DNA from: Heptranchias perlo
Lineage: Eukaryota
DNA length: 64,000 nucleotides
Reading direction: 5' to 3'
NCBI RefSeq assembly: GCF_035084215.1
Contig: NC_090326.1
Coordinates: 27,032,001 to 27,096,000 of the forward strand
Part shown: positions 557 through 52,516 of the stretch, in pieces
Position numbering within the stretch: the first letter of the stretch is position 1
Layout: every line of letters starts with the position of its first letter
The notes under the pieces: model-generated
Database searches by the model: none
What the model saw: the letters and a program-made list of their open reading frames with translations, nothing else
Told to the model about the DNA's origin: nothing
Made by a program: the position numbers and the translations under genes

Positions 557-1124
557 AATGTCATGCTTCCCAGCAATCTCCCCCCGCCCCCACCCCCGCC
601 ACCCTCCCCCACCCCTTGCTGCTTATTTCCACTGGGGGCGCTCAATGTGTTCTATTCAGTTGTGCAAAGTGTTTGCATCACTGATTAAATATGCACAGCA
701 TTCTTTAAAACTTTTCATTTAAGACAAAATTTAACGGAATGCCTAGACAAGGGTCCAATAAGATATACAATCGCTGCAGCAATATAAGTGTTACTTCCAC
801 ACATATCAGGCTCTCCTTTTTAGAACAGAAGAATTTCACCAGGGAGATTTACACAGCGCAATTAAACTAATGAGGTTATTTTCAAACCAGATGGATTAGA
901 TGTGTTTAAACGTAAGTTAAACTGTCAATATGGACATTATAAACTTATGGTCTATGAGGGTCAGTTTAATATAATTAACAGTTGCTTAAAATATGCTCTG
1001 GATAGTATTTCTATGTCACTCCAAGATGGGATAACTCACTTCTCAGAGACCTTGGTCACTGAATTCCCCTAAAGCACATCAAACGTTCTGCTGAATAAGC
1101 TCCTTGGATGCATCAGTCAATAAA

Positions 1125-2960: not shown

Positions 2961-2992
2961 AAAGTTGTATAATATATTTGGTGATGAAATAC

Positions 2993-3046
2993 CTTGTGAG
3001 CTTTGCACTGTTCCAAATATCTGTCACGGCACAAGCAAAATGCCAC
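2993..3046 (-). CDS. Predicted coding exon 6 of the unnamed secreted Cys-rich protein (phase 2 to 2; [M]WHFACAVTDIWNSAKLT)
   Basis: Acceptor ctttatatcatcag|G, donor AAG|gtattt, 80-bp upstream intron, frame continuous with exon 5. An in-frame alternative acceptor lies 18 nt upstream. Confidence 0.6.
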
Positions 3047-3126
3047 CTGATGATATAAAGTGTGCTGCGAGATATTTTACTAGACGGCACCACCCCTTTA
3101 AAAGTTTAGATTTTACAATGACTCAC

Positions 3127-3163
3127 ATTTCCAACATCTGTTGTTCAATGCACTTCTTTATGT
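3127..3163 (-). CDS. Predicted coding exon 5 (phase 1 to 2; [D]IKKCIEQQMLE)
   Basis: Acceptor gtaatcttgcag|A, donor AT|gtgagt; phase matches exon 4. Confidence 0.7.
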
Positions 3164-3613
3164 CTGCAAGATTACACATAAATGCTGACCATGAAATATT
3201 ACACGTCACAGGTGGATAATGAAGCTGCAGGTGCAACACGTTCAGTACATAAACACCCAGCGTCACACGCTGTGCTCATTCGAGGTGGAAGGAAGGACTT
3301 GGTACAGAATCTCCATGCACATTAACACCCGTGTCACATATGGTGTATATTAGGAGTGGAGCAAACGAACTGATATACCATGTTAAGTCACAAGCTCAGA
3401 GGCTAATAAATTATACTGTGTGCGCATAGCTCACGAATGTTTAACTTGTTCAGATTAAACCCCTTTGCCCGATATTTTAGCAGAAGTGTTTTAGGTTAAC
3501 ACCTCTGCTGAAATAGCGGTCAAGGGAATGCTAAGCGTTTGTACGCCATTATCGAACAGCGTAATCTCAATGTCAGAGGGTGATGCACTGTGTTTGTTAG
3601 AGAAGGAACAAAC

Positions 3614-3678
3614 CATCTGGTACATTGTGCTCTGTACATGTAAATACATTGCTGTGCATCGCAAAGGAAGTATTACAC
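3614..3678 (-). CDS. Predicted coding exon 4 (phase 2 to 1; [M]CNTSFAMHSNVFTCTEHNVPD)
   Basis: Acceptor catatttttacctgcag|G, donor ATG|gtttgt; phases match exons 3 and 5; NTS sequon. Confidence 0.72.
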
Positions 3679-4715
3679 CTGCAGGTAAAAATATGAACTG
3701 TTAAGGGCAGTTTCCGCTGAAACGTGTTTCTTTTTAATTATCGGGCTATCCCCCATGGAATTGCTCACTGTGAGTCAGAAGATGCACTGTTTTATAACAA
3801 GAGGGATGTTGTCAACAAAGTGTGACGGGAAAGTGTTACTGGAAGTAAGTGTGACACTTACAGAAAGTGCACACTACATACAACACACCATGGGAAGTCA
3901 AGAATAAGTGTTGTCTTCAGCTGAAGTGGAGTTGAGGGCAGGAGATAATTGGATCAGGGTGCAAAGATGCCATTTTAAAGTCATATATACTGTGTTTATT
4001 TTTATATAATACTTTGATTTTATATGATAATTTACAGGTACAATTTAGGAAGAAGAGTGAATTGAGCAGTTTAGACTGAGGAACAAAATTAAGGTGCTAT
4101 AGCAACACTATTGGTGGGAGTGTGTAACTACAGCATGATACGTTTACATAGGTAGGTTCCATTATAAAATGTAGACGGAGGAATTTATAATAGGAAAAGT
4201 TGACAATAGGAATCAAAAATTTTGCCATTGGGAGATGCGCACAGGCATAAGATTTTTAATATATTATACATAGGTGTTGTAACTGCTTTTTCTAACTTGT
4301 TTCACTTACTAGTATTGCTACTTTGTACAGTAGCATAAACTAAACAGAAGGTCTTGTTCAAAAATCAGTGTCTTGTATCACAGGGAATTCCTTGGATTAA
4401 ACAATGTTAAATTGCCAATGCTTGTCGCATTTACGCAAACTGTACCTTGTCCTTGGCAGGAAGCTTTTGTTCTCCTGACATGCTTGTTTCCATTGAAACT
4501 ATGCTATCTTCTTGGACAGAAATTGGGGAGTTTGCTTCCTTATCTCACCGCTGTTCACAGCTGCATCATTTTTTTTACTCTAACAGAATTACAGCCCAGG
4601 GTCTTGGGACTGCTGTGCTCTTTCCCTGCACCAGCTTTGGACCTCACCCGCTACCTCCGGCCCCCACCCTTTTTCTCTCATCTACACACGTTCCAATGAT
4701 TCCCAGATCCTCCAG

Positions 4716-5150
4716 TACCTGTGGCTCAGTTGGTAGCATTCTCACCTCTGAGGCAGAAGTTTGTGCTCAAAATCTAGGCTAAGACTTCAGTGCAGTACTG
4801 AGGGAGTACTGCACAGTCGGAGGTGCCATCTTTCGGATGAGACATTAAACCGAGGCCACCTGTCAACTCTCTCAGGTGGGTGTAAAAGATCCCATGGCAC
4901 TAATTCAAAGAAGAGCAGGGGCGTTCTCCTGGTATCTTGGCCAGCATTTATCCCACATCCAACACCCAAAAATCAGATTATCTGATCATTATCACATTGC
5001 TGTTTGTGGGACCTCTCCGTGTGCAATTTGGCTGCCGTGTTTCCTACATTACAACAGTGACTACACTTCAAGACTACTTCATTGGCTGTAAAGCGCTTTG
5101 GGACACCCTGAGGTCATGAAAGGTGCTAAATAAATGCAAGTTCTTTCTTT
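4716..5150 (+). mobile_element. DeuSINE (SacSINE1/AmnSINE1-like), near full length
   Basis: A-box TGGCTCAGTTGG, Deu core GAGGGAGT.CTGCAC.GTCGGAGGTGCC.TCTTTCGGATGAGAC...AAAAGATCCCATGGCACTA, L2-type tail ending (TTTC)n. Confidence 0.88.
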
Positions 5151-5423
5151 CACCTCTGCTGTGGCTTCAAGTCCATTTCAACACCAACAGGGAAAACAAG
5201 CCAACCTGGGCACGATGCCTTAACTCTGGATCCATCACTCCCTTTCAGACCCAGGCCTCTCTCCCAAGGAAGATCCCAGTACCCCTCATTCACTCCTAGC
5301 CCACTTTGCAATCTTACATCCCCTCTCAGCCTAAGCCCCCGCTCCCTCCCAGCCGATTCCTTAGTGCCAGTTTCTTTCAGAGTTCTGCATGTGGTAGTAT
5401 TTCCTGGATAACCTCTATCCAGG

Positions 5424-5592
5424 TGGACAGGTTTAGGGAGGGAATTCCAGAGCTTAGGGCCTAGGCGGCTGAAGGCATGGTTGCCAAAGGTGGAGCGATG
5501 AAAATTGGGGATGCGCAAGAGGCCAGAATTGGAGGAGTGCAGAGATCTTGGAGGGCTGTACGGCTGGAGTAGGTTACAGAGATAGGGAGGGG
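5424..5592 (-). mobile_element. L2 LINE fragment
   Basis: RIPNFHRSTFGNHAFSRLGPKLWNSLP; similar to 1748-2122. Confidence 0.8.
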
Positions 5593-5726
5593 CTCCAGAT
5601 GACTCCAGAACAGCCTTATCTTCTAGTCCTTGTGGAAAAACAACATTCTTATAAATTGTAAATCAAAACGATTTCTGAAAATTCTTTTTAAATGACTGGT
5701 CTCCTGATCTATCTCTTTGTCGACTG

Positions 5727-5925
5727 AAATGTGACCCCCTAGTCCAGCCTCATCACCCAGCAGGTGCTGGGAGTGCCAGGGACCAACGTTAAATGTGACC
5801 CCCTAGTCCAGCCTCATCACCCAGCAGGTGCTGGGAGTGCCAGGGACCAACGTTAAATGTGACCCCCTAGTCCAGCCTCATCACCCAGCAGGTGCTGGGA
5901 GTGCCAGGGACCAACGTTAAATGTG
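5727..5925. repeat. Tandem triplication of a 64-bp unit
   Basis: AAATGTGACCCCCTAGTCC...GGGACCAACGTT starts at 5727, 5791 and 5855, with a partial copy at 5919. Confidence 0.95.
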
Positions 5926-5933
5926 GAAACATA

Positions 5934-6117
5934 GGGGATAATTTTCAACCGCCGTCTGGGCAGTAACCTGGCAGACCGGATTGCCCATTCATTGTAGAAC
6001 CTTCCGGAATTCCATCATATTGATTTCAATGGGATGAAAATCGGGCAGGATCTACGGAGACTGTGCATTCCATTCTGCCAGGTTACCACTGAAACGGCAA
6101 GGTTGAAGATTACCCCC
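5934..6117. mobile_element. Short palindromic MITE
   Basis: TIRs GGGGATAATTTTCAACC...GGTTGAAGATTACCCC; internal GTAACCTGGCAGA/TCTGCCAGGTTAC. Confidence 0.7.
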
Positions 6118-6526
6118 TTTATGTTTCAGCAGCTGCCCTTGGAAATGGCATGAAGATCACATTCCCATACCCTTCCCTCTCCCAAACATGCTAATTGATG
6201 CCAACATTATTGGTTTACATAATCGGCACTCGCTGACTAATTGGAGACTAGTTGATAGTGATCAATTGCCATGATTAGTCAACAACTCCATTATCATTGC
6301 ATCATGCAGCTACCAGGATGGTAGAAAGCGAACTAGATGGACCGAGGTCTTTTTTGTCTAGCAGTCCCTATGACACATCACCCATTGGCCATTCTTCATC
6401 CCCAAGCCCAAATAGTGAGCATCAGCGAACAATATGACCATTGGAAGTAGGACAGCTGAGCCTGAACCAGTCCTAAACTGATCTCCACACATTGGCACTT
6501 TCTAGCAAGGTCAGTGAATCAACATC

Positions 6527-7225
6527 AACAACAAGAACTTGCATTTATATAGCACCTTTAACGTAGTAAAATGTCCCAAGGCGCTTCACTGGAGCGTTAT
6601 CAAACAAAATTGGGCACCGAGCCACATAAGGAGATAATAGGGCAGGTTGGTCACAGAGGTAGGTTTTAAGGAGAGACTTAAAGGAGGAGAGTGAGGTTGA
6701 GAGGCAGAGAAGTTTACAGAGGGAATTCCAGAACTTAGGGCTTAGGCAGCTGAAGGCGCGGCCGCCAAGGATGGAGAGATTAAAATCAGGGATGCGCAAG
6801 AGACAAGAATTGGAGGAGTGCAGAGATCTCGGAGGGTTGTAGGGCTGGAGGAGGTTACAGAGATAGGGAGGGCGAGGCCATGGAGGGAATTGAAAACCAG
6901 GATAAGAATTTTAAAATCGAGTTTTGCCGGACTGGGAGCCCATGTAGATCAGTGAGCACAGGGATGATGGGTGAACGAGATTTGGTGTGGGTTAAGATAC
7001 GGGCAGCAGAATTTTGGATGAACTCAGGTTTATGGAGGATGGAAGATGGGAGCAAGAGAGCACTGGAATAGTCAATTCTAGAGGTAACAAAGGCATGGAT
7101 GAGGGTTTCAGCAGCAGATGAGCTGAGGCGGGGCGGAGACGGGCCATGTTACAGCGGTGGAAGTAGGGGGTCTTGGTGATGAAGCGGATATGTGGTCAGA
7201 AGCTCATCTCAGGGTCAAATAGTAC
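6527..7225 (-). mobile_element. L2 LINE 3' portion
   Basis: IQNSAARILT..KSRSPIIPVLTDLH.LPV and GGRAFSCLSPKFWNSL; 3' tail at about 6530. Confidence 0.9.
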
Positions 7226-7400
7226 ACTGCGCATTACAATGTTTTAAACTCCTGTCTTTGTTAAACAGACAAGAGATCCACTATCTAATGGTAGAAAGCG
7301 CTCAGTAACACAATACCTACCTCCCTCATCTTTAAGTTATGATACAACAGTTACAGTATGTCCTGACTTTTTCAATGTGTGGACATGATTTGCTACTCAC

Positions 7401-7624
7401 ATTGCATGATAACCTCCACTGTCATAGAGAGTGAGCAGATAGCTACATTTCTGATTTACTGCCAACATTGGCACAAGCATCCCTCGGGACAACTGAGACT
7501 TTTCCGAACAATGTTTGAACATTTCTTCATGTAGATATTGAAAAGTTGTCGGAGCCAAAAGCTTAAGATTGGGCATTAATTTGTGCCAATTCCTGACTGC
7601 ATTCATCAGCAACAGATCTAAACC
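7401..7624 (-). CDS. Predicted coding exon 3 (phase 0 to 2; GLDLLLMNAVRNWHKL...LYDSGGYHA)
   Basis: 224 nt open only in this frame, acceptor gttcctgatcgtgcag|G, donor AAT|gtgagt, non-repetitive sequence. Confidence 0.78.
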
Positions 7625-7956
7625 CTGCACGATCAGGAACTGACAACGGATCACACCCACACCCAGGCCCAGCCAATCCAAAAATCAAAACAAGTGGTTG
7701 GCTGACAGGTCAGCCATGATTTGGCATCTGGTAACATTAGCAGTATAATTATAAATTGCACTTTAGTAATGACATTCAGCAAGTAAGAGAATGGGAAAAT
7801 GGTCTCAGATTTGGAGACATCATTCGATCACTATCCACTTTCATTCATTTGAGGAAATCTTATGGTCCTATCAATGGTAAATTGTCAGCATTTGTATGGT
7901 TGCAAAGCATGGAACAAACAAAAACAAGGTGTGTGGGTGTAAATGTCAGCTACTGC

Positions 7957-8418
7957 TGTGTCAGCTTGGTTCAGTTGGTAGCACTCTCATCTCTGAGTCA
8001 GAATGTTATGTGTTCAAGTCCCACTCCATAGACTTGAGCACAACATCCAGGCTGACACTCTCGTGCAGTACTGAGGGAGTGCTGCACCGTTGGAGGTGCC
8101 GCCTTTCGGATGAGACGTTAAACCAAGACCCCGTCTGCCCTCTTAGGTGGACGTAAAAGATCCCATATCACTATTTCAAAGAAGACCACGGAACCTCTTC
8201 TCGGTTTTCTGGCCAACATTTATCCCTCAACCAAATTTACTAAAACAGATGATTTGGTCATTACCTCATTGCTGTTTGTGGGACCTTGCTGTGCACAAAT
8301 TGCCTGCCATGTTTCCTACGTTACAACAGTGAATACACTTCAAAAGTACTTCATTGGCTGTAAAGGACGTCCTGAGGTCATGAAAGGCACTATAGAAATT
8401 CAAGTTCTTTTTTTTTCT
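7957..8418 (+). mobile_element. DeuSINE, full length
   Basis: tRNA-like head (TTCAGTTGGTAGC, GTTCAAGTCC), Deu core, L2-type tail. Confidence 0.88.
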
Positions 8419-8734
8419 TGACAGCAGAACAACAGAAATGGGGAGAGCTTGCAGTTAACATTTTTCAATTTATTTTGATTACACCTCTGTCAAGCGCTTT
8501 GGGATGTTCTTCTATGTTAAAGGTGATATATGAATGAAGGTTGTTGTTGTTCAAGCAGAAATATTTTAATATCTTAACTGTTAGACCCTCATAAAAGATG
8601 CTTTGGTTAGATGAGGAGATTGGAGGGGCCTGGTTATAATATCTGTTGTTCAGTAGAGACAACGTGAACCATAATTAGTCTGCAGGGCAAACTACCAAAG
8701 AGGATGAACTGGCAAACCATAAGAAAAGCTCGAA

Positions 8735-9677
8735 ACAGTGGAGGTCCAAAGAGACTTAGGGGTTCATGTACATAGATCATTAAAATATCATGGACAGGTA
8801 CAGAAAATAAACAAAAAGGCTAATGGAATGCTGGCCTTTATATCTAGAGGACTGGAATACCAGGGGGTAGAAGTTATGCTACAACTATACAAAGCCCTGG
8901 TTAGACCACACCTGGGGTACTGTGTTCAGTTCTGGGCAATGCACCTTGGGAAGGATATATTGGCCTTGGAGGGGGTGCAGCATCAATTTACGAGAATGAT
9001 ACCTGGACTCCAAGGTTTAAATTACGAGGAGAGATTACACAAACTCGGGTTGAATTCCCCGGAATTTAGAAGATTAAGGGATGATTTGATCAAAGTTTTC
9101 AAGATATTAAGGAGAACTGATAGGATAGAGAGAGAGAAAAACTATTTCTGCTGGTTGGGGAATCTAGTGTTAATTGTATCCATATGATTTATATCAATTA
9201 GTGTTAATTGTACTCAGGTGGTGCGTATCAATTGGAGACTCTCGTATCCATTTATATGAGAACTTACCAAGGGTGTGGAGTGGGTAATGTGGAGCTCTGT
9301 GAATAAAGGCTTGGAAGCAACTGAAGACCAGGATCTAGTATTCTATCCTTCACCACCTGGCTATCCAATTTATTACATCTAGGACTAGGGGGCATAGCCT
9401 AAAAATTGGAGCCAGGGCTTTCAGGAGTGAAGTTAGGAAACACTTCTACATGCGAAGGGTGGTAGAAGTTCGGAACTCTCTTCTGCAAACGACAGTTGAT
9501 GCTAGCTCAATTGTTAATTTTAAATCTGAGATTGATAGATTTTTGTTAACTAAAGTTATTAAGGGTTATGGGGCTAAGGCGGGTATATGGAGTTAGGTCA
9601 CAGATCAGCCATGATCTCATTGAATGGTGGAACAGGCTCAAGGGGCTAAATGGCCTACTCCTGTTCCTATGTTCCTA
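8735..9677 (+). mobile_element. CR1 LINE 3' portion, interrupted by a solo LTR
   Basis: QRDLGVHV..KANGMLAFISRG..LYKALVRPHL.YCVQFW; 3' UTR GGCCTACTCCTGTTCC with (TTCCTATG)n tail. Confidence 0.92.
9168..9377 (+). mobile_element. Solo LTR (210 bp) of an LTR retroelement
   Basis: TG...CA termini, 5-bp TSD TCTAG at 9163-9167 and 9378-9382, internal TATA-like TTTATAT and AATAAA; it cleanly splits the CR1. Confidence 0.8.
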
Positions 9678-9957
9678 TTCTGTCACTGTTAAGTAGTGGT
9701 CCTGGTGATAGGCCTATATTCAGAGCTGTTTGTTTTTATTTTCATTTGCAAACTTTTTCTGAAACTGTTAAACCCATACTTAGTGAGTTTTGTTGAGGCT
9801 GGCTTGCCTGTTACACTTGGAAGTTAACCTGTCTGTGTATCACCAGCACTTTGTTTTTATGTCAAATGTCCAGCAATTGCAATTTTTCCTTTCTGGTTTA
9901 TTAGTCTGCTCCGCCTGTAGCTTTGTTTCAATATAGAAATCTTGAGATGGATTTCAT

Positions 9958-10182
9958 GGGGGGTGATTTTAAACCCCAAGAATGGGTGGGTTGGCGGGTG
10001 GGTGGGAGTTGAAAATTGTTGTTTTTTGGGTCGCAACCCAGAAAACAACTATTTTATTTCCGGGTTTAACGTCGGCGCGGGAAGGCAAAGTCCGAAAATT
10101 TTGCGGTCGCGACCCAAAAAAACTATTTTCAACTCCCACCCGCCCCCAACCCACCCGTTCTTGGAGTTTAAGATCACCCCCC
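9958..10182. mobile_element. Fold-back MITE (Harbinger-type)
   Basis: About 90-bp inverted arms GGGGGGTGATTTTAAAC...GTTTAAGATCACCCCCC; 3-bp TSD CAT. Confidence 0.85.
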
Positions 10183-11164
10183 CATGTGTCCTTTTTCAGT
10201 ACCCACAGAGGCAAGGCAGTGTCTATCTTGGGTTCAAAAACAACATCTCTGTACCTGCTGTTTAATCCGGTGCAGATTGCCACGGGCCTCAGTACACAGT
10301 CAGCGACAATAAAATAGCTGAGTATGTTTGCTCAGAGATGCAAGACCATTATTTTTTTTGTTGTTGGGCAACCAAATTTAGTAAGTGGGTAGCATTAGTG
10401 ACTACCAGCAAACAATACTTATTCAGTCAATTTTATTAAGAATGAAGACAACGCAATTATATATGCACAAATACACAGTCAATTCCTACCAAGAGCAAAT
10501 TCAATTTCTTATATAACTAAGCTGCCAAAATGGAAACACTATTGAGGCAGTCTTCAAAATGAACTGTCTGCTTTATTCCTTGTCACGCATCTGCATTGGT
10601 AGCTCAAACGAATTACACAGGAATTCCTTCATGCAACCACTCATCATTTTTGACAGGAGAAAATTCAGAGCAGCCAGCCATATGTGCAGTATGAATGAAC
10701 AGAAGAGTTCACGTAGGTTTTACCAGTTCTACCTTCAGACCTCATCTGACCCACCACACAATCTTTCTGCTCACTCCCTCTGCTGCCCAATGCCTTGGCA
10801 GGAGTCCATTCAGAAACAGATTTAACTATCTTGTCCTAAAGCCGTACTAATACCCTCTCACTACAATAAGCGCCTGCAATTATAACTACCCCTGTCCACC
10901 CCTTTTGCTGATTTGACGTACCAGCAATCCGAATAATCTATCACTATTATGACCGAAATTTAAGCTGGTTTTTGATCAGCTTAAAATATCTGACTCAAAT
11001 CACCCTCACATTTAAATCACAGATTCATGCACAGGGACACCTAGAAAGAATACTGGGGAGACATGCTGAGCAGCCATGAAGTCTGACTTAAATCCCACGC
11101 TTTTGCCAACCTGATGAGTAGCAAAAATACAAGTAGGAGGTGTTTCCCTTCCCGCCTGGACTCA

Positions 11165-12190
11165 TCATACATCTGTCCACACCATATCTCACATCTGTCC
11201 ACACCATATCATACATCTGTCCACACCATATCTCACATCTGTCCACACCATATCTCACATCTGTCCACACCATATCATACATCTGTCCACACCATATCTC
11301 ACATCTGTCCATAACATATCACATATCTGACCATACCATATCATACATCTGTCCACACCATATCTCACATCTGTCCACACCATATCTCACATCTGTCCAC
11401 ACCATATCATACATCTGTCCACACCATATCTCACATCTGTCCATAACATATCACATATCTGACCATACCATATCATACATCTGTCCATAACATATCATAT
11501 ATCTGTCAATACCACATCATACATCTGTCCATACTATATCATACATCTGTCTATACAATATCATACATCTGTCCATAACATCACATATCTGTCAATACCA
11601 CATCATACATCTATCCATAATATATCATACATCTGTCTATAAAATATCATACATCTGTCCATAACATCATATATCTGTCAATACCACATCATACATATTT
11701 TCCATACTATATCATACATCTGTCTATACAATATCATACATCTGTCCATAACATCATATATCTGTCAATACCACATCATACATATTTTCCATACTATATC
11801 ATACATCTGTCTATACAATATCATACATCTGTCCATAACATCATATATGTCAATACCATATCATACATCTCTCCATACCATATCTCACATCTGTCCACAC
11901 CATATCTCACATCTGTCCACACCATATCATACATCTGTCCATACCATATCTCACATCTGTCCACACCATATCATACATCTGTCCATACCATATCTCACAT
12001 CTGTCCATACCATAATCATACATCTGTCTGTACCATATTGTACATCTGTCCATATGATATCATACATCTGTCCATACTATACCATAAACCTGTCCATACC
12101 TTATCATACACCTGTTGATACCATATTATGCGCCTGTCGATACTATACACCTGTCCATACCATACCATACATTTGTCCATACGATACATC
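11165..12190. repeat. 22-bp minisatellite (ACATCTGTCCACACCATATCTC and variants), about 1 kb
   Basis: Direct tandem repetition, with divergence increasing toward the 3' end. Confidence 0.95.
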
Positions 12191-12827
12191 ACATTATGAA
12201 AAGATCTTGATATAAATAGTGATTTTAAATGGGAACTAGGTAATTATTGTCGGCCATAGATAGGTTCTAGTGAAATTGCTGGAGTTGAATTCATTCCGAT
12301 TCAATTGAAGCAAGGTCACAGGTGAGTGAACAACATTGAGGAGTAAAATGAACCCAAACACACAGGAAGGTTTGGTTGTCTTTGTGGGTGAGGGTGAGAA
12401 GAATTCATGTTTTGTGGATTGGGTCAATGGGCCCAAAAATTTACTTTCTTCATTGCGTGACATGAGGAATTAGGATGATGAGTCTGAAGACTAAAGTTCA
12501 TGTTTAAAAGCTTAAATTAATGATGAACCTAAAAATGTGAACACTGTGCATGAAGGTGTCTGCCTCTCCTAGTGGACCCGCAATAATGGGTGTTCCAGAA
12601 TGTCTCCATTTACTTTAATGGGGACCAACACTTCAGATTGACCTGGGAGCCAATGCAACCTGGAGCAACCCAATATTGGGAAAACACCCCAACAGGTGTG
12701 TACTGCGGCATACTTAGTCAATCATGTACTTTGCCAGATTTGGAGGCTCCAGATCATCTCCCAGGCCGGTGCGAAGTATCGGCCCCACTGAAATGAATGG
12801 AGCCATGCCAGGAAACAAAATAATTAC

Positions 12828-12956
12828 CTCCCTGTCACTAATATTACCAGAACAACCCAGCAGAGGCGAGCAACCTATCGTGATTGGTCTCGGCCAGGCA
12901 GCGGACCCAATGGTATTTTTTGATAGATCGCAAATATATCTGTTTCCATATTTCTT
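12828..12956 (-). CDS. Predicted coding exon 2 (phase 0 to 0; KKYGNRYICDLSKNTIGSAAWPRPITIGCSPLLGCSGNISDRE)
   Basis: Strong acceptor cctgtttttttctttgtctag|A, donor GAG|gtaatt, 129 nt open in phase 0; NIS sequon. Confidence 0.8.
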
Positions 12957-14689
12957 CTAGACAAAGAAAAAAACAGGGGAGTATTTTGAATAGGCAGTAC
13001 ATCCCCTATACTTTGCTTCAATTTTAAGTAAGTATTAGTGCAGATTATGGTTGAAGTACCTTTTAAAATGATGAAATGCACTGGTCGTCAACTTTAGAAC
13101 TACATTCAGAATACTGGGGTAGATTTTAAACTTGCTGCCCAGGTATAAAACTGGAAAAGAAGATTGGGCAGGGTGTAAAACGGGCTGTCCATTCACTAGC
13201 TCCCATTTTCCATTACTGCCCAAGACAAATCTCAATGCCTCCCCTCCCCCACCCCCCGACTCAATATATAGCGCTAATGAAATTAATAGAACTCAAAGCC
13301 TTACTGTATTCATCTGCATGTACCATAAGCCAAGAATTAGGTAAACGTTCCTGAATGCACAAACCATTATTTTTCATAAACCATTTCATAAATAAGTGTC
13401 TTGTGAGTCACTGTACCTTAAAGGCACTGCCCCTTTAAGGTCGAGAACCAGCAGCATACCATTTGGTGACATCACCATTTTGCTGTGACCCCCATAAGCA
13501 TGAAGTGGAAATTTCATTCAATTCCCACAGTCTCAGGACCACACAAGCGTTGCAATATGAATTACATTATAAGTTTTTAATGTGCATTGTATTATGAGTG
13601 GCAGTAACTAGAGACTGCATTTGGTACCATAAACAATAAGTGTCTGATACATGAAAGAATTTTAAGATTTCACATATGTCTATCAAAATGCCTTCCAAAC
13701 CAAACACACTGTCCTTAAGTTCTGCACCATCTGCGAATCAGGATTCCAGTTATGGAAAAAAAGGAGTATGGAATCTCTTGTTAATCATAATTACTTCTGT
13801 AAACAATTACTGCACAAGGTTGTGACACTGTTCTTCTCTGGGTCAGGCCCAAAACTGTAGCTATTGATCCAAAGCCATTATAAAGTCTGAAAATGTCAGT
13901 GTCCAGGTCCCACTGCGGCTTTTATTTAAAACACAGAATGCTCTCCTTCCATGTCCCACCAGCACTAATTCATTTTAGGTTCTCTCTTCCCCGCCACCCC
14001 CCCACTCCCAACTTTTCCAATTTTCCTCCCCCTCCCCAGCAAGAGCCAACTCGTGCTGTAGCAGACTCCAGCAGCCCTCTGATATAACCCCCAAGTAGTC
14101 ATTAGTACCAGAAGATGGTCATACCATGGAGGAGCCATCTCCAGTTCTCAGCCAACAACCTCAGGTCACACTTTTTAGCAGTGGCAGCAAAATATCAAAG
14201 AGTGGGAACCCTGACCAGTTCTGTCCCTTACTAGCCCAAGGGGTGGTGGAGCTGAAGCCAGTTCTAACACTTCCCACCAGCAACTTGAAGTCGGCACTCC
14301 CAGCACAGAGAGCATACTGGACCTTCCTTATCTATGCAGCTCAGTATGACATCTTGCCATGCACTTACAAATTGGGCCATTGGGAGAAGCTATTTGTTTT
14401 TGAATCATTTAAATTTGTATGCAATAATAATAATTTTTTAAAACTTCATTTCACAACGGGAGGTTGCTTTCTTCCCAAAAAGCAACCACCAACTTCTCGA
14501 AGGGAGATAATTGACAGAGTTTTGTCACCAGATGACGATGTCAAGGTGCCAGCTACTCTTGGCTGAGACCCAGGGAAAACTAGGCGGTCCGTGCCTTCGA
14601 AATACTTATCCAGGGACTTTCAATCAGTAGAGTGCAGGGTGACCACCAACATGCAGAAATAAGACTTCTTCTGCTTAATTGCTAGCGCG

Positions 14690-14730
14690 CACACACACTC
14701 ACACACACGCACACACACACACACACACAC
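14690..14730. repeat. (CA)n microsatellite
   Basis: Direct observation. Confidence 0.95.
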
Positions 14731-14943
14731 TGATGTTTTTCATGCGTTTCATCCAGTAGTCACTGGCACACCGACATCATCATCTGATGACAGTGTGCTG
14801 TGAAGAATCGTGCCAAGGCTCTCGAAGATGCAATTAATGAAGTGCAAAATATCTACTTGGAAATGTTTTAGCTCTTGAGATGCTCCATCAACAAGCAACC
14901 CACTTCTCAAAAAGTAATTGCCCTGCAGTACCTATAACCCATC

Positions 14944-15106
14944 GGGGAGTAATTTTGACTTTGGGCGATAGTGTAAAACGAGCAGTATCGGCCTGTTATT
15001 TCAGACGCCTGTTATACATCATTCCCAATTTTCATTTTCATTGAAGTTGGACGGCTGAATCAAGATCGTCTGTTTCACACCATCACCCAAAGTCAAAATT
15101 ATCCCC
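14944..15106. mobile_element. Short palindromic MITE, same family as 398-556
   Basis: TIRs TAATTTTGACTTTGGGCGATAGTGTAAAAC / CACCCAAAGTCAAAATTATCCCC. Confidence 0.75.
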
Positions 15107-15499
15107 ACTGTTCTGCCGTTCTTTCGCCGAATGGTTTAATTCACCCAAAGTTAAAGGAATCACATCGGTTTTAAATTCCTCAACTTGATAGATTTATCAA
15201 AATTAGACCTCTGTTAAAAAGTAGAAGAATCTGCAAGAAATTGCTAACAAATTATTCGTCTTGTCATTAGCACTTTGATGATTGCTACAATTCTAAAGAT
15301 GGATTAACGAACCTTTAGTGAAAAAGACAGGAGAAAAGAGTCAATGCGGAAGCCATGCAGCATTCCACCACTGCATAGTTCAACTTGAAACGTGGGTGTT
15401 TTATTGCCAGTTACGACTCGTACTTACCTAAATGTTTACAGCTGCAACCGAAACATAAACAGCTATCACTGCCAACAGTGCTCGCACAGGCTCCAGCGC

Positions 15500-15714
15500 A
15501 GCCTAACCTGCTGATAGAACTCTGCCCACCCCCACCCCATGCTCATTGGCCTCCATGCCTGTCCGTCAAATCTTTGCCTCCTCTCATTGGTGCATCGGTG
15601 CTGCTCATCAACTCTACTTCCTTTTTTTCCTCCCGGATTGTTCACAGCAGCGTCCGGGAGATCTCCCCTCAATTCAGGGAGACTCCGGGATAATCCAGGA
15701 GGGTTGGCAACCCT
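15500..15714 (-). mobile_element. Degenerate hAT-type MITE
   Basis: Ends GGATAATCCAGGAGGGTTGGCAACCCT, the reverse complement of the start of the element at 16500; the other end is eroded. Confidence 0.6.
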
Positions 15715-16011
15715 GCCTTCGCCTCCCATTGGTTTTCAACACTTTATCGGTGCATTTGAGAAGCATTTTAGAGATCGAGGCAAAAACATTTTCTCACTGC
15801 GCACTTTTGAGCTGTTCCTTCCCATCTCCGTAGCAACCCATAAGGCCCTGCTTATCTGAAATCAACTTTTAAAATGTTAACTAGTTATTTTAGCTTTTCT
15901 CGCAGCAGACAGACAAAATGCTGCAATTTTCCTGTGACACATTAATTCACTCCAGCACCCTCTGAATTATTTCTCCGCATCATTCACTGTATCGATTACA
16001 TCAGCTTCAGT

Positions 16012-16155
16012 AACAACAACAACTTGCATTTATATAGCACCTTTAACGTAGTAAAATGTCCCAAGGCGCTTCACAGGAGCGTTTGACACCGAGCCACATA
16101 AGGATACATTAGGACAGGTGATCAAAAGCTTAGTCAAAGAGGTAGGTTTTAAGGA
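16012..16155 (-). mobile_element. L2 3' tail fragment
   Basis: (CAA)n CTTGCATTTATATAGCACCTTTAACG, as at 6530. Confidence 0.8.
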
Positions 16156-16499
16156 AGATGTAGTCAGGTTTCAGAGGTGTAGCTTAAGATTTCAAACTCT
16201 GTCACCTAAAAGCAAAATAAAAATTACTCAAAATTGTGGTCAGGGGGCTTATTACATTTAAATGTAAAAACGTCCTTAATTTTATATACGAGGTATACGC
16301 ACAAGAAACATTTTGTAATAATTATAGAAATAAATGAATTTTCATTAAAGAGAAGTGAAAGTCTAGGAGGATTACCTTTTGTTGTAGTATTCCCCATTTG
16401 ATTGAAAAAAAATAATAGCCCGAGCAGTTTTTTTTTATTCAGTAAAAACATCAAGAATTCTGTATCCTCAGCCCATCAGGTGGCTTCTAGGTGTCAGAC

Positions 16500-18433
16500 T
16501 AGGGTTGCCAACCCTCCAGGATTGTCCTGGACAATCCAGAAATTAAAGATTAATCTCCTGGACACTCCTGCGAGCAATCCAGGAGAAAAATCATCGGAGC
16601 AGTAAAACAAATTGTATGCTTTTTCATTTTCTTTCAACACTTACATTTATTAGTTATAAAACTATTGGAGATGGATGTTAGGGAACTTGGGAAAATAAAT
16701 AGTGATGTACATATTACAGAGAGGGGGTGCTGGAAGTCTTAACGCGCATCAAGGTAGATAAATCTCCGGGACCTGATGAAATGTATCCCAGGACGTTATG
16801 GGAGGTTAGGGAGGAAATTGCGGGTCCCCTAGCAGAGATATTTAAATCATCGACAGCTACAGGTGAGGTGCCTGAAGATTGGAGGGTAGCAAATGTTGTG
16901 CCTTTGTTTAAGAAGGGCGGCAGGGAAAAGCCTGGGAACTACAGACCGGTGAGCCTGACATCTGTAGTGGGTAAGTTGTTAGAGGGTATTCTGAGAGACA
17001 GGATCTACAGGCATTTGGAGAGGCAGGGACTGATTAGGAACAGTCAGCATGGTTTTGTGAGAGGAAAATCATGTCTCACGAATTTGATTGAGTTTTTTGA
17101 AGGGGTAACCAAGAAGATAGATGAGGGCTGTGCAGTAGACGTGGTCTACATGGACTTTAGCAAAGCCTTTGACAAGGTACCGCATGGTAGGTTGTTAGAT
17201 AAGGTTAAATCTCACGGGATCCAAGGTGAGGTAGCCAATTGGATACAAAATTGGCTTGACGACAGAAGACAGAGGGTGGTTGTAGAGGGTTGTTTTTCAA
17301 ACTGGAGGCCTGTGACCAGCGGTGTGCCTCAGGGATCGGTGCTGGGTCCGCTGTTACTTGTTATTTATATTAATGATTTGGATGAGAATTTAGGAGGCAT
17401 GGTTAGTAAGTTTGCAGATGACATCAAGATTGGTGGCATTGTGGACAGTGAAGAAGGTTATCTCGGATTGCAACGGGATCTTGATAAATTGGGCCAGTGG
17501 GCCGATGAATGGCAGATGGAGTTTAATTTAGATAAATGTGAGGTGATACATTTTGGTAGATCGAATCGGGCCAGGACCTACTCCGTTAATGGTAGGGTGT
17601 TGGGGAGAGTTATAGAACAAAGAGATCTGGGAGTACAGGTTCATAGCTCCTTGAAAGTGGAGTCACAGGTGGATAGGGTGGTGAAGAAGGCATTCGGCAT
17701 GCTTGGTTTCATTGGTCAGAACATTGAATACAGGAGTTGGGATGTCTTGTTGAAGTTGTACAAGACATCAGTAAGGCCACACTTGGAATACTGTGTACAG
17801 TTCTGGTCACCCTATTATTGAAAGGATATTATTAAACTAGAAAGAGTGCAGAAAAGATTTACTAGGATGCTACCGGGACTTGATGGTTTGACTTATAGGG
17901 AGAGGTTGGATAGACTGAGACTTTTTTCCCTGGAGAGTAGGAAGTTTAGGGGTGATCTTATAGAAGTCTATAAAATAATGAGGGGCATAGATAAGGTAGA
18001 TAGTCAAAATCTTTTCCCAAAGGTAGGGGAGTCTATAACGAGAGGGCATAGATTTAAGGTGAGAGGGGAGAGATACAAAGGGTCCAGAGGGGCAATTTTT
18101 TCACTCAAAGGGTGGTGAGTGTCTGGAACGAGCTGCCAGAGGCAGTAGTAGAGGCGGGTACAATTTTGTCTTTTAAAAAGCATTTGGACAGTTACATGGG
18201 TAAGATGGGTATAGAGGGATATGGGCCAAGTGCAGGCAATTGGGACTAGCTTAGTGGTATAAACTGGGCGACATGGACATGTTGGGCCGAAGGGCCTGTT
18301 TCCATGTTGTAAACTTCTATGATTCTATGATTCTATGGGGGAGAAAAGGCTGTTTGAGTGGTGGGGCGGTTGGAGGTGGGAGGTCATGTGATGAAATCTC
18401 CAGGAATACATCCAACCAGAGCTGGCAAACCTA
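16500..18433 (+). mobile_element. Non-autonomous hAT-type MITE containing a CR1 insertion
   Basis: TIRs TAGGGTTGCCAAC...GCTGGCAAACCTA; perfect 8-bp TSD TGTCAGAC at 16492-16499 and 18434-18441. Confidence 0.88.
16670..18336 (+). mobile_element. 5'-truncated CR1 LINE with a nearly intact RT domain
   Basis: ORF 16727-17821: [39 protein letters not shown]; tail (TTCTATGA)n. Confidence 0.97.
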
Positions 18434-19139
18434 TGTCAGACACCACTAAAGTGGCCAAGCAGAAAAGGAGATCCCACTCGAGGGCGTCCAGGCCAAAAAA
18501 AAATTCAGGCTATTATTTTATTCCATAAAATGGGGGAAATACTTTGAACAAAAAACATCCTCCCCAAACATGCCTTTCACTTTAATATCAGCTTTATGCC
18601 TGAGGAATCGGTCATGTTTCTTTTCTGTCAGCTGTTTTAATTGTTTCTGATCATATTTTTTGATGGGGTTGGATTATTTTTGAAAGGGGGTAATCTTACT
18701 GAAATATTTACAATACAGGCCAAGTCATGCCTGCAAATAACCATTACATCATATCGCCCATATCTCTTTAGCTGTTCACTGGTCCAGTCATGTTTTCAGA
18801 AGTGAATTTCACTGCACTTAGATCATCGCTTTCACAAAAGGGTTAATTAGTCCATGACCTTTTGAAATACCTTCCCTGATAGAGTGAGAGTGTTTTCTCT
18901 ATATTCTAATATAGAATAAAACAAAGGCAAATGGTTCAAGCTACAGTGCTCGGTAAAAGATGCAGCGACAGTGTTTTAATACTGAATATATAGCAAGTCA
19001 ATTAGAGGTGGTAAATTCAGATAAGAATGCAAGGATAAAGGAAATCAGTAGGACCCATGAAGTGAGATTTCAACTCTTCTGCATTTCTACTGTGTTACGA
19101 ATTGCACCCAATTTGAAAAATAGTTCCTTACCATTCAAT

Positions 19140-19360
19140 CCTAACATAGTAGAAATCTGGAACTCTTTCCCCCAAATGGCTGTGAATGCTGGGGCAATTG
19201 GAGCTTTCAAGACTGAGATTGATAGATTTTTGTTGGGTAAGGGTATCAAGGGATAGGGAGCAAAGGTGCATCAATGGAATTGAGGTGCATATCGACCATG
19301 ATCTAATTGAATGGCGGAGCAGGCCCAAGGGGCTGAATGGCCTACTCCTGTTCCTAATGT
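19140..19360 (+). mobile_element. CR1 3' end
   Basis: VEIWNSFPQ.AV.AG.I..FKTEIDRFL; 3' UTR GGCCTACTCCTG. Confidence 0.85.
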
Positions 19361-19716
19361 AACTACGTTACTACACAGAGTATGAGAAAAGACTGATCAT
19401 AGTGTCGGAGCACTGCACAGAACACTCAACAGATTGTTAATAAGGTGTCGTCCCACAGCTGAGTTCTGCTTCAATTCAAAAGTTGCTACATGAATATGCA
19501 GAGGCTATATTCACTTTCACATACGTGCGCTTAGTCATAAAATACTTGACCATTTACAGGTGGTCAACACTTGGCAGTCTGGCCTCCACATTATAGCATG
19601 GCGGATATTTCCTGCATACAAGGTAATGTTAACTGCAAAGAACACCCGATTAAAACAAAATGACTTGCTGCCATCTTAGTTAAGGATACTGCATCAGGCT
19701 TCAGGAGCTTTTGTAA

Positions 19717-19946
19717 GTGTCAGCTTGGCCGTGGTTTTAGCACTCTTGCTTCTGAGTCAAGTGGTCACAGGTTCAAGCCACACTCCTAGAATAGAGCACA
19801 AAATTCACACTATCATTTCAGTGCAGTACTGAGGGAGTACTGCATTGTTGGAGGCAATGTCCTTCAGATGACAGGTTAAACCCAAGATGCTGTCCGTCTG
19901 CTCATTCAAGTGGATCGTAACCATTCCTGGCACTACTCAAAGAAGT
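19717..19946 (+). mobile_element. DeuSINE 5' half, diverged
   Basis: GGTTCAAGCC B-box and CAGTGCAGTACTGAGGGAGT core. Confidence 0.75.
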
Positions 19947-19959
19947 AGTACAGAACAGA

Positions 19960-20220
19960 TTTTTTTTTTAATATTCATTCTTGGGATTTAGGCCTCGCTG
20001 GCAAGGCCGGCATTTATTACCCATCTCTAGTTACCCTGAGAAGGTGGTGGTGAGCCGCCTTCTTGAACCGCTGCAGTCCATGTGGTGAAGGTTCTCCCAC
20101 AGCGCTGTTAGGTAGGGTGTCCCAGGATTTTGACCCAGCGATAATGAAGGAATGGCGATATATTTCCAAGTCGGGATAGTGTGTGAGTTGAAGGTGAACT
20201 TGGAGGTGATGGTCATTGCT
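19960..20220 (-). mobile_element. 3' end of the CR1-group LINE family seen at 44662-47885
   Basis: THYPDLEIYRHSFIIAGSKSWDTLP; GAATGAAT plus A-tail. Confidence 0.85.
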
Positions 20221-20771
20221 GTTTCTGGAACCTTTTTTTTTCTTGCACAAAATGGCTGCCTATGTAACAAAGTGCTTCAAAGTATTTCACAAATGTCAAT
20301 ATTTGTTAATCCAGGTGTGGCATATACAATAGTACTAGTAACAGCAGCAGAGAAAATCTGATTTACAGACGTTATTGCATGTACATTATGGTTAGCTTTT
20401 TAAAAAAAAAACAGCACCTGAAATACTTTGCTTAGGAATCACACATCACAAAGTCTGTTCTTTCATGGAGTGTTTTGAGACATTTCCACAAGACGTGATT
20501 TGGTACAATAGAAATGTTACCCTTTCTTCAAATCTGCAACTGTGCAATGCAGCCTTAAATATATGTGGCGGTTTTATATCACACTCCTATTCTGCTGAAA
20601 AACGAATTAGGCAACTTCAAATGTTAGCATTCAAAAAATATACTACATCAAAATAGTTTGATCGGGCTGCCTGTACCAACCATTAGCATCTTTATCTGTG
20701 CTGCATGACAAAGCATTCTTGATGAGACAAGTCAAGACTGCGATGAACAGCCCGATAGCAACAGTCCCTTG

Positions 20772-20823
20772 GTTTTCAAATAAAACTGTTGGACTATAAC
20801 CTGGTGTTGTAAGACTCCTTACA
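20772..20823 (+). mobile_element. Short terminal fragment of a Penelope-like element
   Basis: CAAATAAAACTGTTGGACTATAACCTGGTGTTGTAAGA.TCCTTACA is nearly identical to 63632-63678. Confidence 0.75.
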
Positions 20824-21169
20824 CTTCTCTCTGCTGACGTTCCAACTACTGCAATTGCATCTGCCACACCTGGATCAACAAACTTTGGCATCTGTATCAG
20901 TTAAGTGACCCATTAGTCATTTTGAGAAACACAGAGGGTCCGCTGTTGTACATGTGCTGTGATTGGCTCTTTTTAGTTACTTTTCTATTGCCACAAATGT
21001 TTTTCTTAGGAATTGCACGTCACATAACATCATCTGCTCTTTCGTCTTCATTACCAGTTTGTGACTATCAAAATAAAAAGCAAGCCTATCTCAGCTCTTT
21101 TTCCGGGAAAAGAAGAATGTCAGCTTCTTAGTTCTTATCGTGAAGATGATACAATGAAGGTAAAGAGTC

Positions 21170-21470
21170 AGCCCATAAGCTCAGTGCGTAAATGCTCCGT
21201 TGTGTGATACTAGACCTCACAAACCTGGAAGGCCTAAGATTCAATCCTTGAATCTATGTTGAGTTAGTTGGATCACTGTGTGAACACTAAATTTGCCCTC
21301 AGTGCCCCTGGGCTAGGGAGGGGGGGAAAGCAATTTGACTCAGGTCCCTGTTCCCAGCCGCTGCTGGAAAGTGCGCGTGTATGGATGTTAGCTGAAGGAA
21401 AGATCAAGCTTGGTGATGATTGCAATGCCCCCTCCAGTCAAATAGCCAATGTCACTCATTGTTTAGGCTC
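21170..21470 (+). mobile_element. tRNA-derived SINE, second family, diverged
   Basis: AGCTCAGTG A-box, GATTCAATCC B-box-like, CCTCAGTGCCCCTGGGCTAGGGAGG; similar to 1125-1400. Confidence 0.55.
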
Positions 21471-21472
21471 CG

Positions 21473-21825
21473 AGAATCATAAAATCTTACAGCACAGAAG
21501 GAGGCCATTCGGCCTATCGTGCCAATGCTAGCTCTTTGAAAGAGCTATCCAATTTAGATTCACACCCCATTTTTCCCCATAATCCTACAAATTAGTCCTC
21601 TTCAAGTGCATGTCCAATTGCCTTTTGAAAGTTCCTATAGAATCTGCTTCCACCACCCTTTCAGGTAATGAGTTCCAGATCTTAACAACCTTCTTTGTGA
21701 AAAAATTTCTCCTCATTTCTCCTCTTGTTCTTGTGCCAATTATTTTAAATCTATGGCCTTTGGTTACCGACCCACTTACAAGAGGAAACAGTTTCTCCCT
21801 ACTTGCTCTATCAAAACCTACATGA
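21473..21825 (-). mobile_element. CR1 3' end
   Basis: GFDRASREKLFPL..GHRFKI..RRNFFTKKVVKIWNSLPERVVEA. Confidence 0.88.
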
Positions 21826-21889
21826 ATAATTACACTTCGTACCAGAGGATAAGTGCTGACCAGATACCAGAATGAGTCATCACATTCCA

Positions 21890-22170
21890 GACACGTAATC
21901 TCCACCACTGAGAAGGTCAAGGGCAGCAGGTGCATGGGAACACCATCACCTCCAAGTTCCCCTCCAAGTCACACACCATCCCGACTTGGAAATATATCAC
22001 CGTTCCATCATCATCGCTGGGTCTAAATCCTGGAACCCCCAACCTAACAGCGCTGTGGGAGAACCTTCACCACACAAACTGCAGTGGTTCAAGAAGGCGG
22101 CTCACCACCACCTTCTCAAGGGCAATTAGGGATAAGCAATAAATGCTGGCCTTATCCCCAGAATGAATTA
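21890..22170 (+). mobile_element. 3' end of the CR1-group LINE family seen at 44662-47885
   Basis: CCCTCCAAGTCACACACCATCCCGACTTGGAAATATATC...GCAATAAATGCTGGCC. Confidence 0.85.
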
Positions 22171-22934
22171 AAGAAAAGAAAGGAGGAAAAGAAATTGGAA
22201 ATGATGAAGGAGCTTGATAACATGTTCAGTCTTAAAGGACCGTTGTTAACAAAGGAAAGCATTTGGCAATCACATTAACATAGAACCATTATTGTATACA
22301 ACACAGGAGACATCCGGCTCTTTTTTAGAACAATCCAATTATAATCCCACTACCCTGCTCTCTCTCTCCATTGTCCTGTACCTGGCTCGCCTTTCAGTAT
22401 TAATTCATTTTTCCTTTAAACAGTGCAATAGTCTCTACCTCAACTACAAAGCATTCCACGCTCCAACAACTGTCTTCTCAAAGAAAATTCTCCCAATCTC
22501 TCTCCTCACTCTTCTTGTGATGATTTTAAATTGATGACACCTCACCATCAAAGAAAAAATGACACACAGCTCTTTTGGCTTTACTGCCTTCCCAATACAG
22601 TGACAGCCTCCCTCTACACCTATAAACAGAAATCACACGGAATTCTCCTTTAAAATATCTATGCCAATTAATATTGCTATTGGCCTGCTACTTAAGGGGG
22701 TTGAGCTTTCCAAGGATCAGGTCCCTGCCTTGAATACCAAAAAATGATAATCACCAGCTAAACAGCAGCAAACCATGGCTGCTTTAAGTGAGCCTAATGC
22801 TAACGCCATTAGTGGCTTGATTCCTGCAGCATGCTAAATCTTCCAGATGTGGCTACAGCTGCACCCAGTTGTACAAGAGACGCCTCCTGACTGGAAATAA
22901 AGAGCATCTGTGCCCCGAGTGCATGTGACCTCAC

Positions 22935-23054
22935 CTCACATTCGTAGGGTCCTTCACAAGCAGTGCTTGCCAGCGAAGCAAGAAAAATCAATCTCCAAAA
23001 TCGAAGGCTTGAAGGGAACCTCCACCTTAAGGCCACGCACAGGCGTCTATTCAT
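22935..23054 (-). CDS. Predicted first coding exon with signal peptide (MNRRLCVALRWRFPSSLRFWRLIFLASLASTACEGPYECE)
   Basis: ATG in caaaATG context (A at -3) after an in-frame stop, basic n-region plus hydrophobic LIFLASLA, donor GAG|gtgagg, phase 0 matching exon 2. Confidence 0.68.
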
Positions 23055-24139
23055 TTTGAAAATGGCATCTCCACATGGGTGGAGTTTAAAGAGAAAATTT
23101 TAAACTGTAGTTAATCTCACTACAAGATGGTTGGCCTTCCGCGAAGAGTGACTTTAAACAGGACACACCGACCCCTTTTACACTGTTGAAAGCACAGAGC
23201 AGCGGAGTTGGGAGAAAAAAACTAAAAGGTAAAAGGAAGAAGTGGAATGTTCTCAACAGAGGCCCTGATTAGAAAACCAGTCACCTCAAGGTGAGGCTTA
23301 AAGAGAGAACAAGGTGGTTTTTTAAACTTGTGGAGCAAGTGTGGTTTGAAAAGCTTTTAATCTTTGGTGTGCTCCTCTAATGAGCAAACACAATATTTAT
23401 CATTTTCCAAATTCTTGTTTTTTTAAATTTATTTTGCCCTTTAAAATGGAGTATCACGATAACATCCCCTTTTAAAACACAAAAAAATAAAGGTTTGTCA
23501 CAAACTTCCTATCTTTCAACAGTTGCTTTGTAGAATTTTGTTTAAACAGTGTGTGCTGATGATGATATCAGGGGAACAGCCTTGTATCCATCTCGTAGTT
23601 GCACATCTTATGGAAACGAGGCAAGTCTCTGTTCCTAGAACAACCAACTCAGGGTCCTCGATTTTAACCCTCTGCCCCCCACCCTCCACACACCCTCCAC
23701 CCCCAACCCCCCAGACGGGCAGGAATTGGTCCGATGAGGGGTTAAAATCTTGAAAATCAAAATCCCGCCTCCAAACCACCACATTCCCGGCCGCCGTAAT
23801 ATTAACGGTGATGATTCAGGCCATCGACAAGACTAAAAACTGTGGCAAGCCAAACTGGATAATAAGGGAGACGGAGAATTCATGGTCATGAACATTATAT
23901 CTGCAGTGGTATAGACTTTAACCATGGAGGTTTTTGTCTTTCTATAATGTTCATTTGATTTTTGGAAAATTAAAATACAAAATAATAAGTTGTTGCAGGA
24001 GACCAACGGACTCCCAGGGAAACAGCGTCAGTGGCTGAATGTGACCCTTTACTCCATTACTCTGGGTTCTTCATCAGTCTCTTGCCCGGAGATCTCCAGT
24101 TACAAAGAGGTGACTTAGGTGACTCCAAGGATTTGGTTT

Positions 24140-52502: not shown

Positions 52503-52516
52503 GAATTGTACCACAA

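Follow-up and report, generated by a model that had tools for sequence, protein, structure and literature searches.

A 64,000-nucleotide stretch of the genome of the shark Heptranchias perlo (NCBI RefSeq assembly GCF_035084215.1, contig NC_090326.1, positions 27,032,001 to 27,096,000 of the forward strand; hereafter the window) contains six minus-strand segments between positions 2993 and 23054 that can be joined into one open frame. An earlier note, made from the letters of this DNA, proposed them as the exons of a gene for an unrecognised, secreted, cysteine-rich glycoprotein. The coordinates of all six exons and their canonical GT-AG sites proved correct, with AG at the end of the five internal acceptors and GT at the start of the six donors. 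The joined frame runs through junction phases 0, 0, 2, 1, 2 to a final phase 2 and comprises 209 codons without a stop. As the note also held, the segments are non-repetitive (0 of 6 overlap sequence repeated within the window) and hidden from the open reading frame (ORF) track, none of them appearing in the list of ORFs of at least 100 residues. What the sequence shows directly is an open frame that can be spliced, an N-terminus resembling a signal peptide, helical periodicity, and, in the mature part, 11 cysteines and both sequons. Tentatively, and at somewhat less than an even chance, we take the candidate to be a real, unannotated, fast-evolving, lineage-restricted shark gene encoding a disulfide-bonded, largely helical glycoprotein that is secreted or anchored by glycosylphosphatidylinositol (GPI).

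Exons 1 to 6 measure 120, 129, 224, 65, 37, and 54 nt, respectively. The 12 cysteines counted before lie at positions 6, 33, 39, 49, 69, 75, 122, 143, 159, 172, 184, and 197 of the 209-residue frame, and the two sequons are N78 and N160. Exon 1 (22935..23054) begins with an ATG, encodes 40 residues including the signal-peptide-like segment, Cys33, and Cys39, and ends in phase 0 at a donor within the top 0.3%. Exon 2 (12828..12956; 43 residues, phase 0 to 0) carries Cys49, Cys69, Cys75, and the sequon N78; its acceptor (top 0.2%) is the strongest minus-strand acceptor in 2900-24500 and has an in-frame alternative 3 nt downstream. Exon 3 (7401..7624; 74 residues, phase 0 to 2) encodes three predicted amphipathic helices with Cys122 and Cys143. 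Exon 4 (3614..3678; phase 2 to 1), containing Cys159, the sequon N160, and Cys172, combines a strong acceptor with a weak donor. Exon 5 (3127..3163; phase 1 to 2) contributes Cys184, and exon 6 (2993..3046; phase 2 to 2), which follows an 80-nt intron and contributes Cys197, has the weakest acceptor. Scored with weight matrices, the splice sites lie in the normal range. Ranked among all 8535 AG or 6941 GT sites in the window, eight of the 11 fall in the top 3%, the weaker ones being the exon 4 donor (top 20%), the exon 6 acceptor (top 10.5%), and the exon 6 donor (top 7%). The mean scores on the full scale, 7.7 bits for donors and 8.2 bits for acceptors, are near the expectation for real sites. 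One frame is open in each of exons 1, 2, 3, and 5 and two in each of exons 4 and 6, and the other two frames of the joined exons carry 11 and 13 stops.

The ATG of exon 1 has an A at position -3 and an in-frame stop 16 codons upstream, and is therefore the first usable start in its frame. The signal peptide proposed in the note agrees with a home-made rule for n-, h-, and c-regions applied to exon 1: a basic n-region precedes a hydrophobic core that starts at residue 22, small residues occupy -3/-1 near A32, and cleavage is predicted around A32/C33. Among 42 ATG-to-donor candidates, translations resembling signal peptides occur at two loci, of which exon 1 is one. Alternatively, this start, rich in arginine and free of acidic residues, might be a mitochondrial presequence. 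Further upstream on the minus strand, two sites resembling acceptors (23221 and 23182, within 23182..23221; scores 6.6 and 3.1) precede the ATG, and exon 1 may follow an untranslated exon. We found no upstream CpG island apart from repeat-borne CpG. Another signal-like first exon at 48297-48226 (minus strand) ends in a phase-0 donor in phase with exon 2, but it follows a TA microsatellite, lies 35 kb away, and is probably due to chance.

We identified three candidate ends for the frame, all on the minus strand. Reading through the exon 6 donor (C-terminus A, 2947..2992) adds 15 codons before a stop, for a total of 224 residues; a repeated element begins immediately past the stop at 2947, and Pfam returned no match for the 32-residue read-through of exon 6. 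The last three codons (2947-2955) spell Ser-Lys-Leu, which we take to be a tripeptide of the peroxisomal targeting type; a peroxisomal destination is at odds with the signal peptide, and the tripeptide is probably a coincidence. C-terminus B (308..386) is a phase-2 terminal exon with the strongest acceptor to the left of exon 6 and an uncharged hydrophobic tail resembling a GPI signal. GPI-like tails occur in about 1% of the acceptor-frame pairs of the window (7 of 735), and C-terminus B, borderline at the threshold, falls outside these seven. Its pyrimidine tract is in part the inverted repeat of an element at 398-555 resembling a miniature inverted-repeat transposable element (MITE), 11 nt upstream. 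Because the tract borrows from this terminal inverted repeat, C-terminus B is disfavored as an old exon, and it is a weak candidate. C-terminus C (715..742), a short phase-2 terminal exon, is also weak; it would add one cysteine, giving an even number of 12 in the mature part. The terminal exon may also lie beyond the window edge.

The amphipathic helices proposed in the earlier note are consistent with the helical hydrophobic moment of the mature part, which exceeds that of shuffled sequences (P=0.010). With genomic stop-free stretches as nulls, 12 of 600 reach the 100-degree ratio and 54 of 600 the absolute moment. The periodicity is most evident in exons 4-6, where 6 of 500 shuffles reach it and where it continues across the exon junctions, followed by exon 3 (37 of 500); it is absent from exon 2 (179 of 500). 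As about 10 statistics were tried, these figures are only suggestive. Single-sequence AlphaFold2 models were of low confidence, namely three helices in a generic arrangement for exon 3 (predicted local distance difference test score, pLDDT, of 57) and a hairpin for exon 2 (pLDDT 52); fold searches with these single-exon models gave generic matches or none.

The exon chain was compared with chains in order-3 Markov sequences that were masked for repeats exactly like the real window. The mask combined repeats from self-BLAST with eight blocks masked by hand, among them 81-389, 1180-1741, and 5152-5420. When a signal-peptide-like first exon was required, junction stops were excluded, and a longer intron prior was used, the best three-exon chain was exons 1-3, reached by 23 of 2383 nulls, and the best six-exon chain was exactly the six exons of the note, reached by 113 of 2383. 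In six strand-regions, no three-exon cluster confined to 800 nt scores higher than exons 4-6 (score 41.2; reached by 268 of 1835 nulls), and exon 4 takes up the phase left by exon 3. The statistical support for the chain is modest and strongest for exons 1-3; the noted gene model is the best model initiated by a signal peptide in the 24-kb stretch, but it is unproven. These recoveries speak against the reading that the chain consists of pseudo-exons, that is, unique intronic or intergenic DNA whose chance splice-like sites were picked to fit in phase and which yields no protein. The helical periodicity spanning the exon 4-6 junctions and the compactness of that cluster, with introns of 80 and 450 nt, argue in the same direction.

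Chain searches without a constraint on the start did not exceed the nulls. With a flat penalty of 8 bits per exon on the minus strand of 1-24000, the best chain was exons 1-2-3, equalled by 1170 of 3375 nulls; at 6 bits the best chain contained exons 2-5 and was reached by 1776 of 3375. With priors on exon and intron length, in a run that did not exclude stops across junctions, the six exons scored -4.7 bits, where the best null chains reached -6.6 ± 5.9; regions elsewhere on the minus strand outscored them. The signal-peptide rule was post hoc, written after exon 1 had been seen, and the unique sequence open to search is about five times larger, which raises the corrected rates to roughly 5% for exons 1-3 and 20% for all six exons. 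Over the whole minus strand, a six-exon chain starting at 48297, itself chance-looking, scores -1.9 compared with -3.7 for the noted exons. The cluster thresholds for exons 4-6 were likewise chosen after seeing the data, to admit these sites. Pseudo-exons would account for nulls with unconstrained starts often yielding equally good chains, for equal or better chains on other strands and in other regions of the window, for random-like coding statistics and cysteine count, and for the failure to find a homologue. We regard this explanation as doubtful, albeit one that would cause little surprise. Minus-strand skews over the locus, T>A (z 2.1) and G>C (z 2.8), are weak and fit minus-strand transcription weakly; the T>A skew is not locus-specific and runs across the whole window (z 4.4 for 23055-64000).

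The 209-codon frame shows neither the codon-position asymmetry nor the amino-acid bias that coding DNA usually has. Its codon-position chi2 is 8.8; random stop-free stretches have 7.4 ± 4.3, and four ORFs of long interspersed nuclear elements (LINEs) have 14.7-24.2. G1 minus G2 amounts to 0.01, and the amino-acid log-odds are -7.4 bits, against -11 ± 7 for random ORFs and the +11.5 expected for an average vertebrate protein. The cysteine content behind the description as cysteine-rich is not above chance for this DNA, as stop-free stretches drawn at random have 8.7 ± 3.2 cysteines against the 12 here (P=0.18), and the 11 in the mature part are an odd number unless a further exon contributes one. 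Met, Cys, Trp, and Asn are in excess, whereas Val, Gly, Glu, and Gln are scarce. Relaxed selection moves proteins in a similar direction, but non-coding DNA drifts likewise. Normal splice sites combined with a neutral-looking composition are what would be expected if the exons were real but belonged to a long non-coding RNA that is spliced, to a de novo ORF of recent origin, or to a decaying gene with hardly any selection at the protein level, which would also account for the lack of an annotated protein. The 209 stop-free codons, set against 11 and 13 stops in the other frames, together with the signal-peptide-like start and the helical periodicity, are less readily explained in this way, and we consider such a weakly selected transcript unlikely. 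Of the gene proposed in the note, the open, spliceable frame stands, whereas genehood is not established, given the random-like coding statistics and the lack of an annotated orthologue despite shark proteins in the database.

Searches of outside libraries used the exons singly, and their sensitivity is limited because only fragments of 21-74 residues were searched; exons 5 and 6 were too short for this purpose. For exons 1-4, the label "unrecognised" was well chosen, as no credible homologue emerged from Pfam, the PDB, the ESM Atlas, or the protein collections. Pfam returned nothing for these exons but Copine at E 0.16, and PDB sequences matched neither exon 3 nor exon 4, while exon 2 drew OsmC at E 1.6. 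HMMER with exon 3 (74 residues) against 1.84 billion representatives at 50% identity produced no match at E 1e-10 and two borderline ones, with E 6e-4 and 1e-3, 29-34% identity, and 5 and 3 matched stretches. The records behind them are metagenomic singletons whose names are uninformative, and we take them to be probable repeat-protein noise. Of the candidates from word searches against longer proteins, none of 12 held up for exon 3 and none of 9 for exon 2, although such blanks are weak evidence. The top ESM Atlas matches scored 0.75 and 0.80, within the range of shuffled proteins, and Atlas recognition was low (2003 and 1179). No annotated orthologue appeared for exon 3 among the 1.84 billion representatives or for exons 2 and 3 in the word search, even though H. 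perlo proteins are present: a Harbinger-type nuclease fragment of the window (49741-50178) matches NCBI/UniRef proteins of Heptranchias perlo at 62-80% identity (3 matches among 882 candidates), which marks the window as shark DNA and shows that shark proteins are represented in the collection searched. An annotated shark orthologue with more than about 40% identity over exon 3 should have shown up, we infer. The gene is therefore unannotated in the proteomes covered, or very fast evolving, or no gene at all. The suggestion that it was lost in mammals finds no evidence, since a homologue was found in no species. A literature search, with supplements outside its reach, turned up no description of the candidate protein, and three 8-residue motifs from the exons occurred in no paper.

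Among known proteins, the candidate by prediction most resembles the pocket-type helical cysteine-rich domains. As described in an excerpt of PMC8660895, these are disulfide-stabilised helical scaffolds that bind folate, riboflavin, or sterols, and JUNO is a diverged member serving sperm-egg fusion. Like folate receptors, JUNO, riboflavin-binding protein, HHIP-N, and NPC1-N, which that excerpt portrays as extracellular, about 170-200 residues long, disulfide-rich, and helical (PMC8660895), the candidate would be an extracellular helical domain of this size. It could also share a GPI-like tail with folate receptors and JUNO, through the borderline C-terminus B with its acceptor leaning on the MITE end. 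The first four mature cysteines are spaced 5/9/19, close to the 5/10/20 that we presume for the N-terminal domain of NPC1. Unlike folate receptor, JUNO, and riboflavin-binding protein, however, exons 1-4 match no Pfam family of this kind, and none of the exons searched matches a PDB sequence of it. The adjacent Cys-Cys pair that we take to be a trait of the folate receptor family is absent, and the same holds, next to the missing Pfam and PDB matches, for the Cys-Cys and CxxC motifs presumed for NPC1-N. The candidate also has fewer cysteines than pocket-type domains, and its introns disagree in position with theirs, leaving a working analogy only. Because it failed every sequence-level test of membership, the candidate may work like these domains, but we do not say that it is one.

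The same data bear on the idea that the candidate is a very diverged member of a named family (the NPC1-N or folate-receptor clan, ribonuclease T2, or another) lying beyond the reach of single-exon searches. The apparent resemblance in cysteine spacing and the shortness of the searched fragments leave room for it; the lack of a relevant Pfam family for exons 1-4, of a relevant PDB sequence, and of the presumed Cys-Cys and CxxC hallmarks makes it improbable. Ribonuclease T2 is also a secreted, cysteine-containing glycoprotein of similar size, with a loose likeness in motif order and two phase-0 junctions. Exon 2, however, has no histidine that could stand for the presumed catalytic His of the first of the two active-site segments, Pfam gave no match, and two intron losses would be needed. 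Short-chain four-helix cytokines (IL-34, CSF1, KITLG, FLT3LG, IL-7) resemble the candidate in size and in the signal peptide, amphipathic helices, and N-glycans predicted for it. Their fold is an up-up-down-down four-helix arrangement, and the exon 3 model is a generic one of three helices. Their helical domains are split by phase-0 introns, whereas the candidate has phases 0, 0, 2, 1, 2, 2, with 2, 1, 2, 2 after exon 3, and no profile matched. Of the secreted ligand suggested in the earlier note, the helical-cytokine version is accordingly disfavored, as judged by the phase-0 rule. In an excerpt of PMC3296468, 10 gene families are described that have no eutherian members, and eight of these, with multi-exon structures, are uncharacterised. 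The candidate is comparable in exceeding 200 residues, in its multi-exon structure, and in having no known function, but the families of that excerpt had homologues and expressed sequence tags in several vertebrates (PMC3296468), and none were found here.

If the favored reading of a real secreted or GPI-anchored glycoprotein holds, the product would be an extracellular glycoprotein of about 225-235 residues. Its N-terminus would direct import into the endoplasmic reticulum, with cleavage near residue 32, and the mature part of about 170-190 residues would fold oxidatively into a disulfide-pinned, mostly helical domain, with N-glycosylation at N78 and N160. Secretion (C-terminus A or C) or GPI anchoring (C-terminus B) would follow. 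At the cell surface or in a secretion, loops on the disulfide-held helical scaffold might bind either a partner protein or a ligand that is small and hydrophobic. Fold, ligand, and tissue are alike inferred, and the link to pocket domains draws on size, predicted helicity, the NPC1-N-like cysteine spacing, and the possible GPI tail; even granting a real gene of this kind, we think the pocket-domain model rather unlikely. Expression may be restricted to a rarely sequenced tissue, our guess being the reproductive tract, which could explain both fast divergence and absence from annotations. A bolder version, which we hold to be quite improbable, would make the candidate the founding member of an undescribed chondrichthyan family: a secreted or GPI-anchored, stand-alone, highly diverged relative of the NPC1-N/folate-receptor/JUNO fold, missed by annotation and serving, in sharks with their internal fertilisation, either to carry sterols or vitamins or in gamete recognition.

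Orphan secreted proteins as such are nothing new, and the interest of this one hangs on confirmation. If real, it would be a multi-exon gene for an extracellular protein without an annotated relative in searches covering shark proteomes, hinting at a class of quickly evolving secreted genes that escape annotation pipelines for want of coding bias and homologues. Sharks fertilise internally, and to our knowledge their gamete-recognition and reproductive-tract proteins are poorly known; a new helical, cysteine-bearing surface protein would therefore be a direct candidate. If the chain arose by chance, it would caution that 20 kb of shark DNA can easily yield exon chains that agree in phase and have normal splice sites.

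Inspection of most of 24-64 kb, together with Pfam on 10 chosen ORFs, revealed transposon parts and no neighboring host gene, so that synteny lacks markers. Rfam gave no matches in the window, and tblastn found no paralogous exons within it. The whole window (1-64000) may lie inside a single minus-strand transcription unit. Its self-repeated fraction is 36%, and the ORFs of at least 100 residues are dominated by LINE, Harbinger, GIY-YIG, and simple-repeat frames. A Harbinger-type DNA transposon remnant occupies 49186-51283; its nuclease fragment (plus strand, 49654-50217) is 80% identical to a putative Heptranchias perlo nuclease HARBI1, and a minus-strand ORF within the remnant (50411-50950) is presumably Myb/SANT-like, with no match in Pfam. 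LINE fragments that we take to be CR1-like lie at 28407-30727 (minus), 16706-17821, 59305-61260, and 8723-9187 (all plus); Pfam confirmed RVT_1 in 28410-29720 of the first. A second LINE type (44711-47700, minus) has a 561-codon endonuclease-reverse transcriptase frame with Exo_endo_phos. The GIY-YIG fragment at 62988-63400 (E 0.009) is probably part of a Penelope-like element, and a terminal motif similar to its own lies near 20800 (about 20780-20830). The MITE-like element occurs at 398-555 and 14940-15117; its terminal inverted repeats are 34 nt long, and an inner one measures 21 nt. Tandem and simple-sequence arrays (11137-12200, 26205-26560, 52040-53100, 53713-54990, 58640-59310, and 5750-5930) give rise to the long repetitive ORFs of the list. 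A second tight three-exon-like cluster lies on the minus strand at 27450-28213 (28213-27953, 27825-27777, and 27521-27450); Pfam gave no match for its first segment, and its score is 39.8 compared with 41.2 for exons 4-6. Exon chains on the minus strand outscored those on the plus strand in all three regions.

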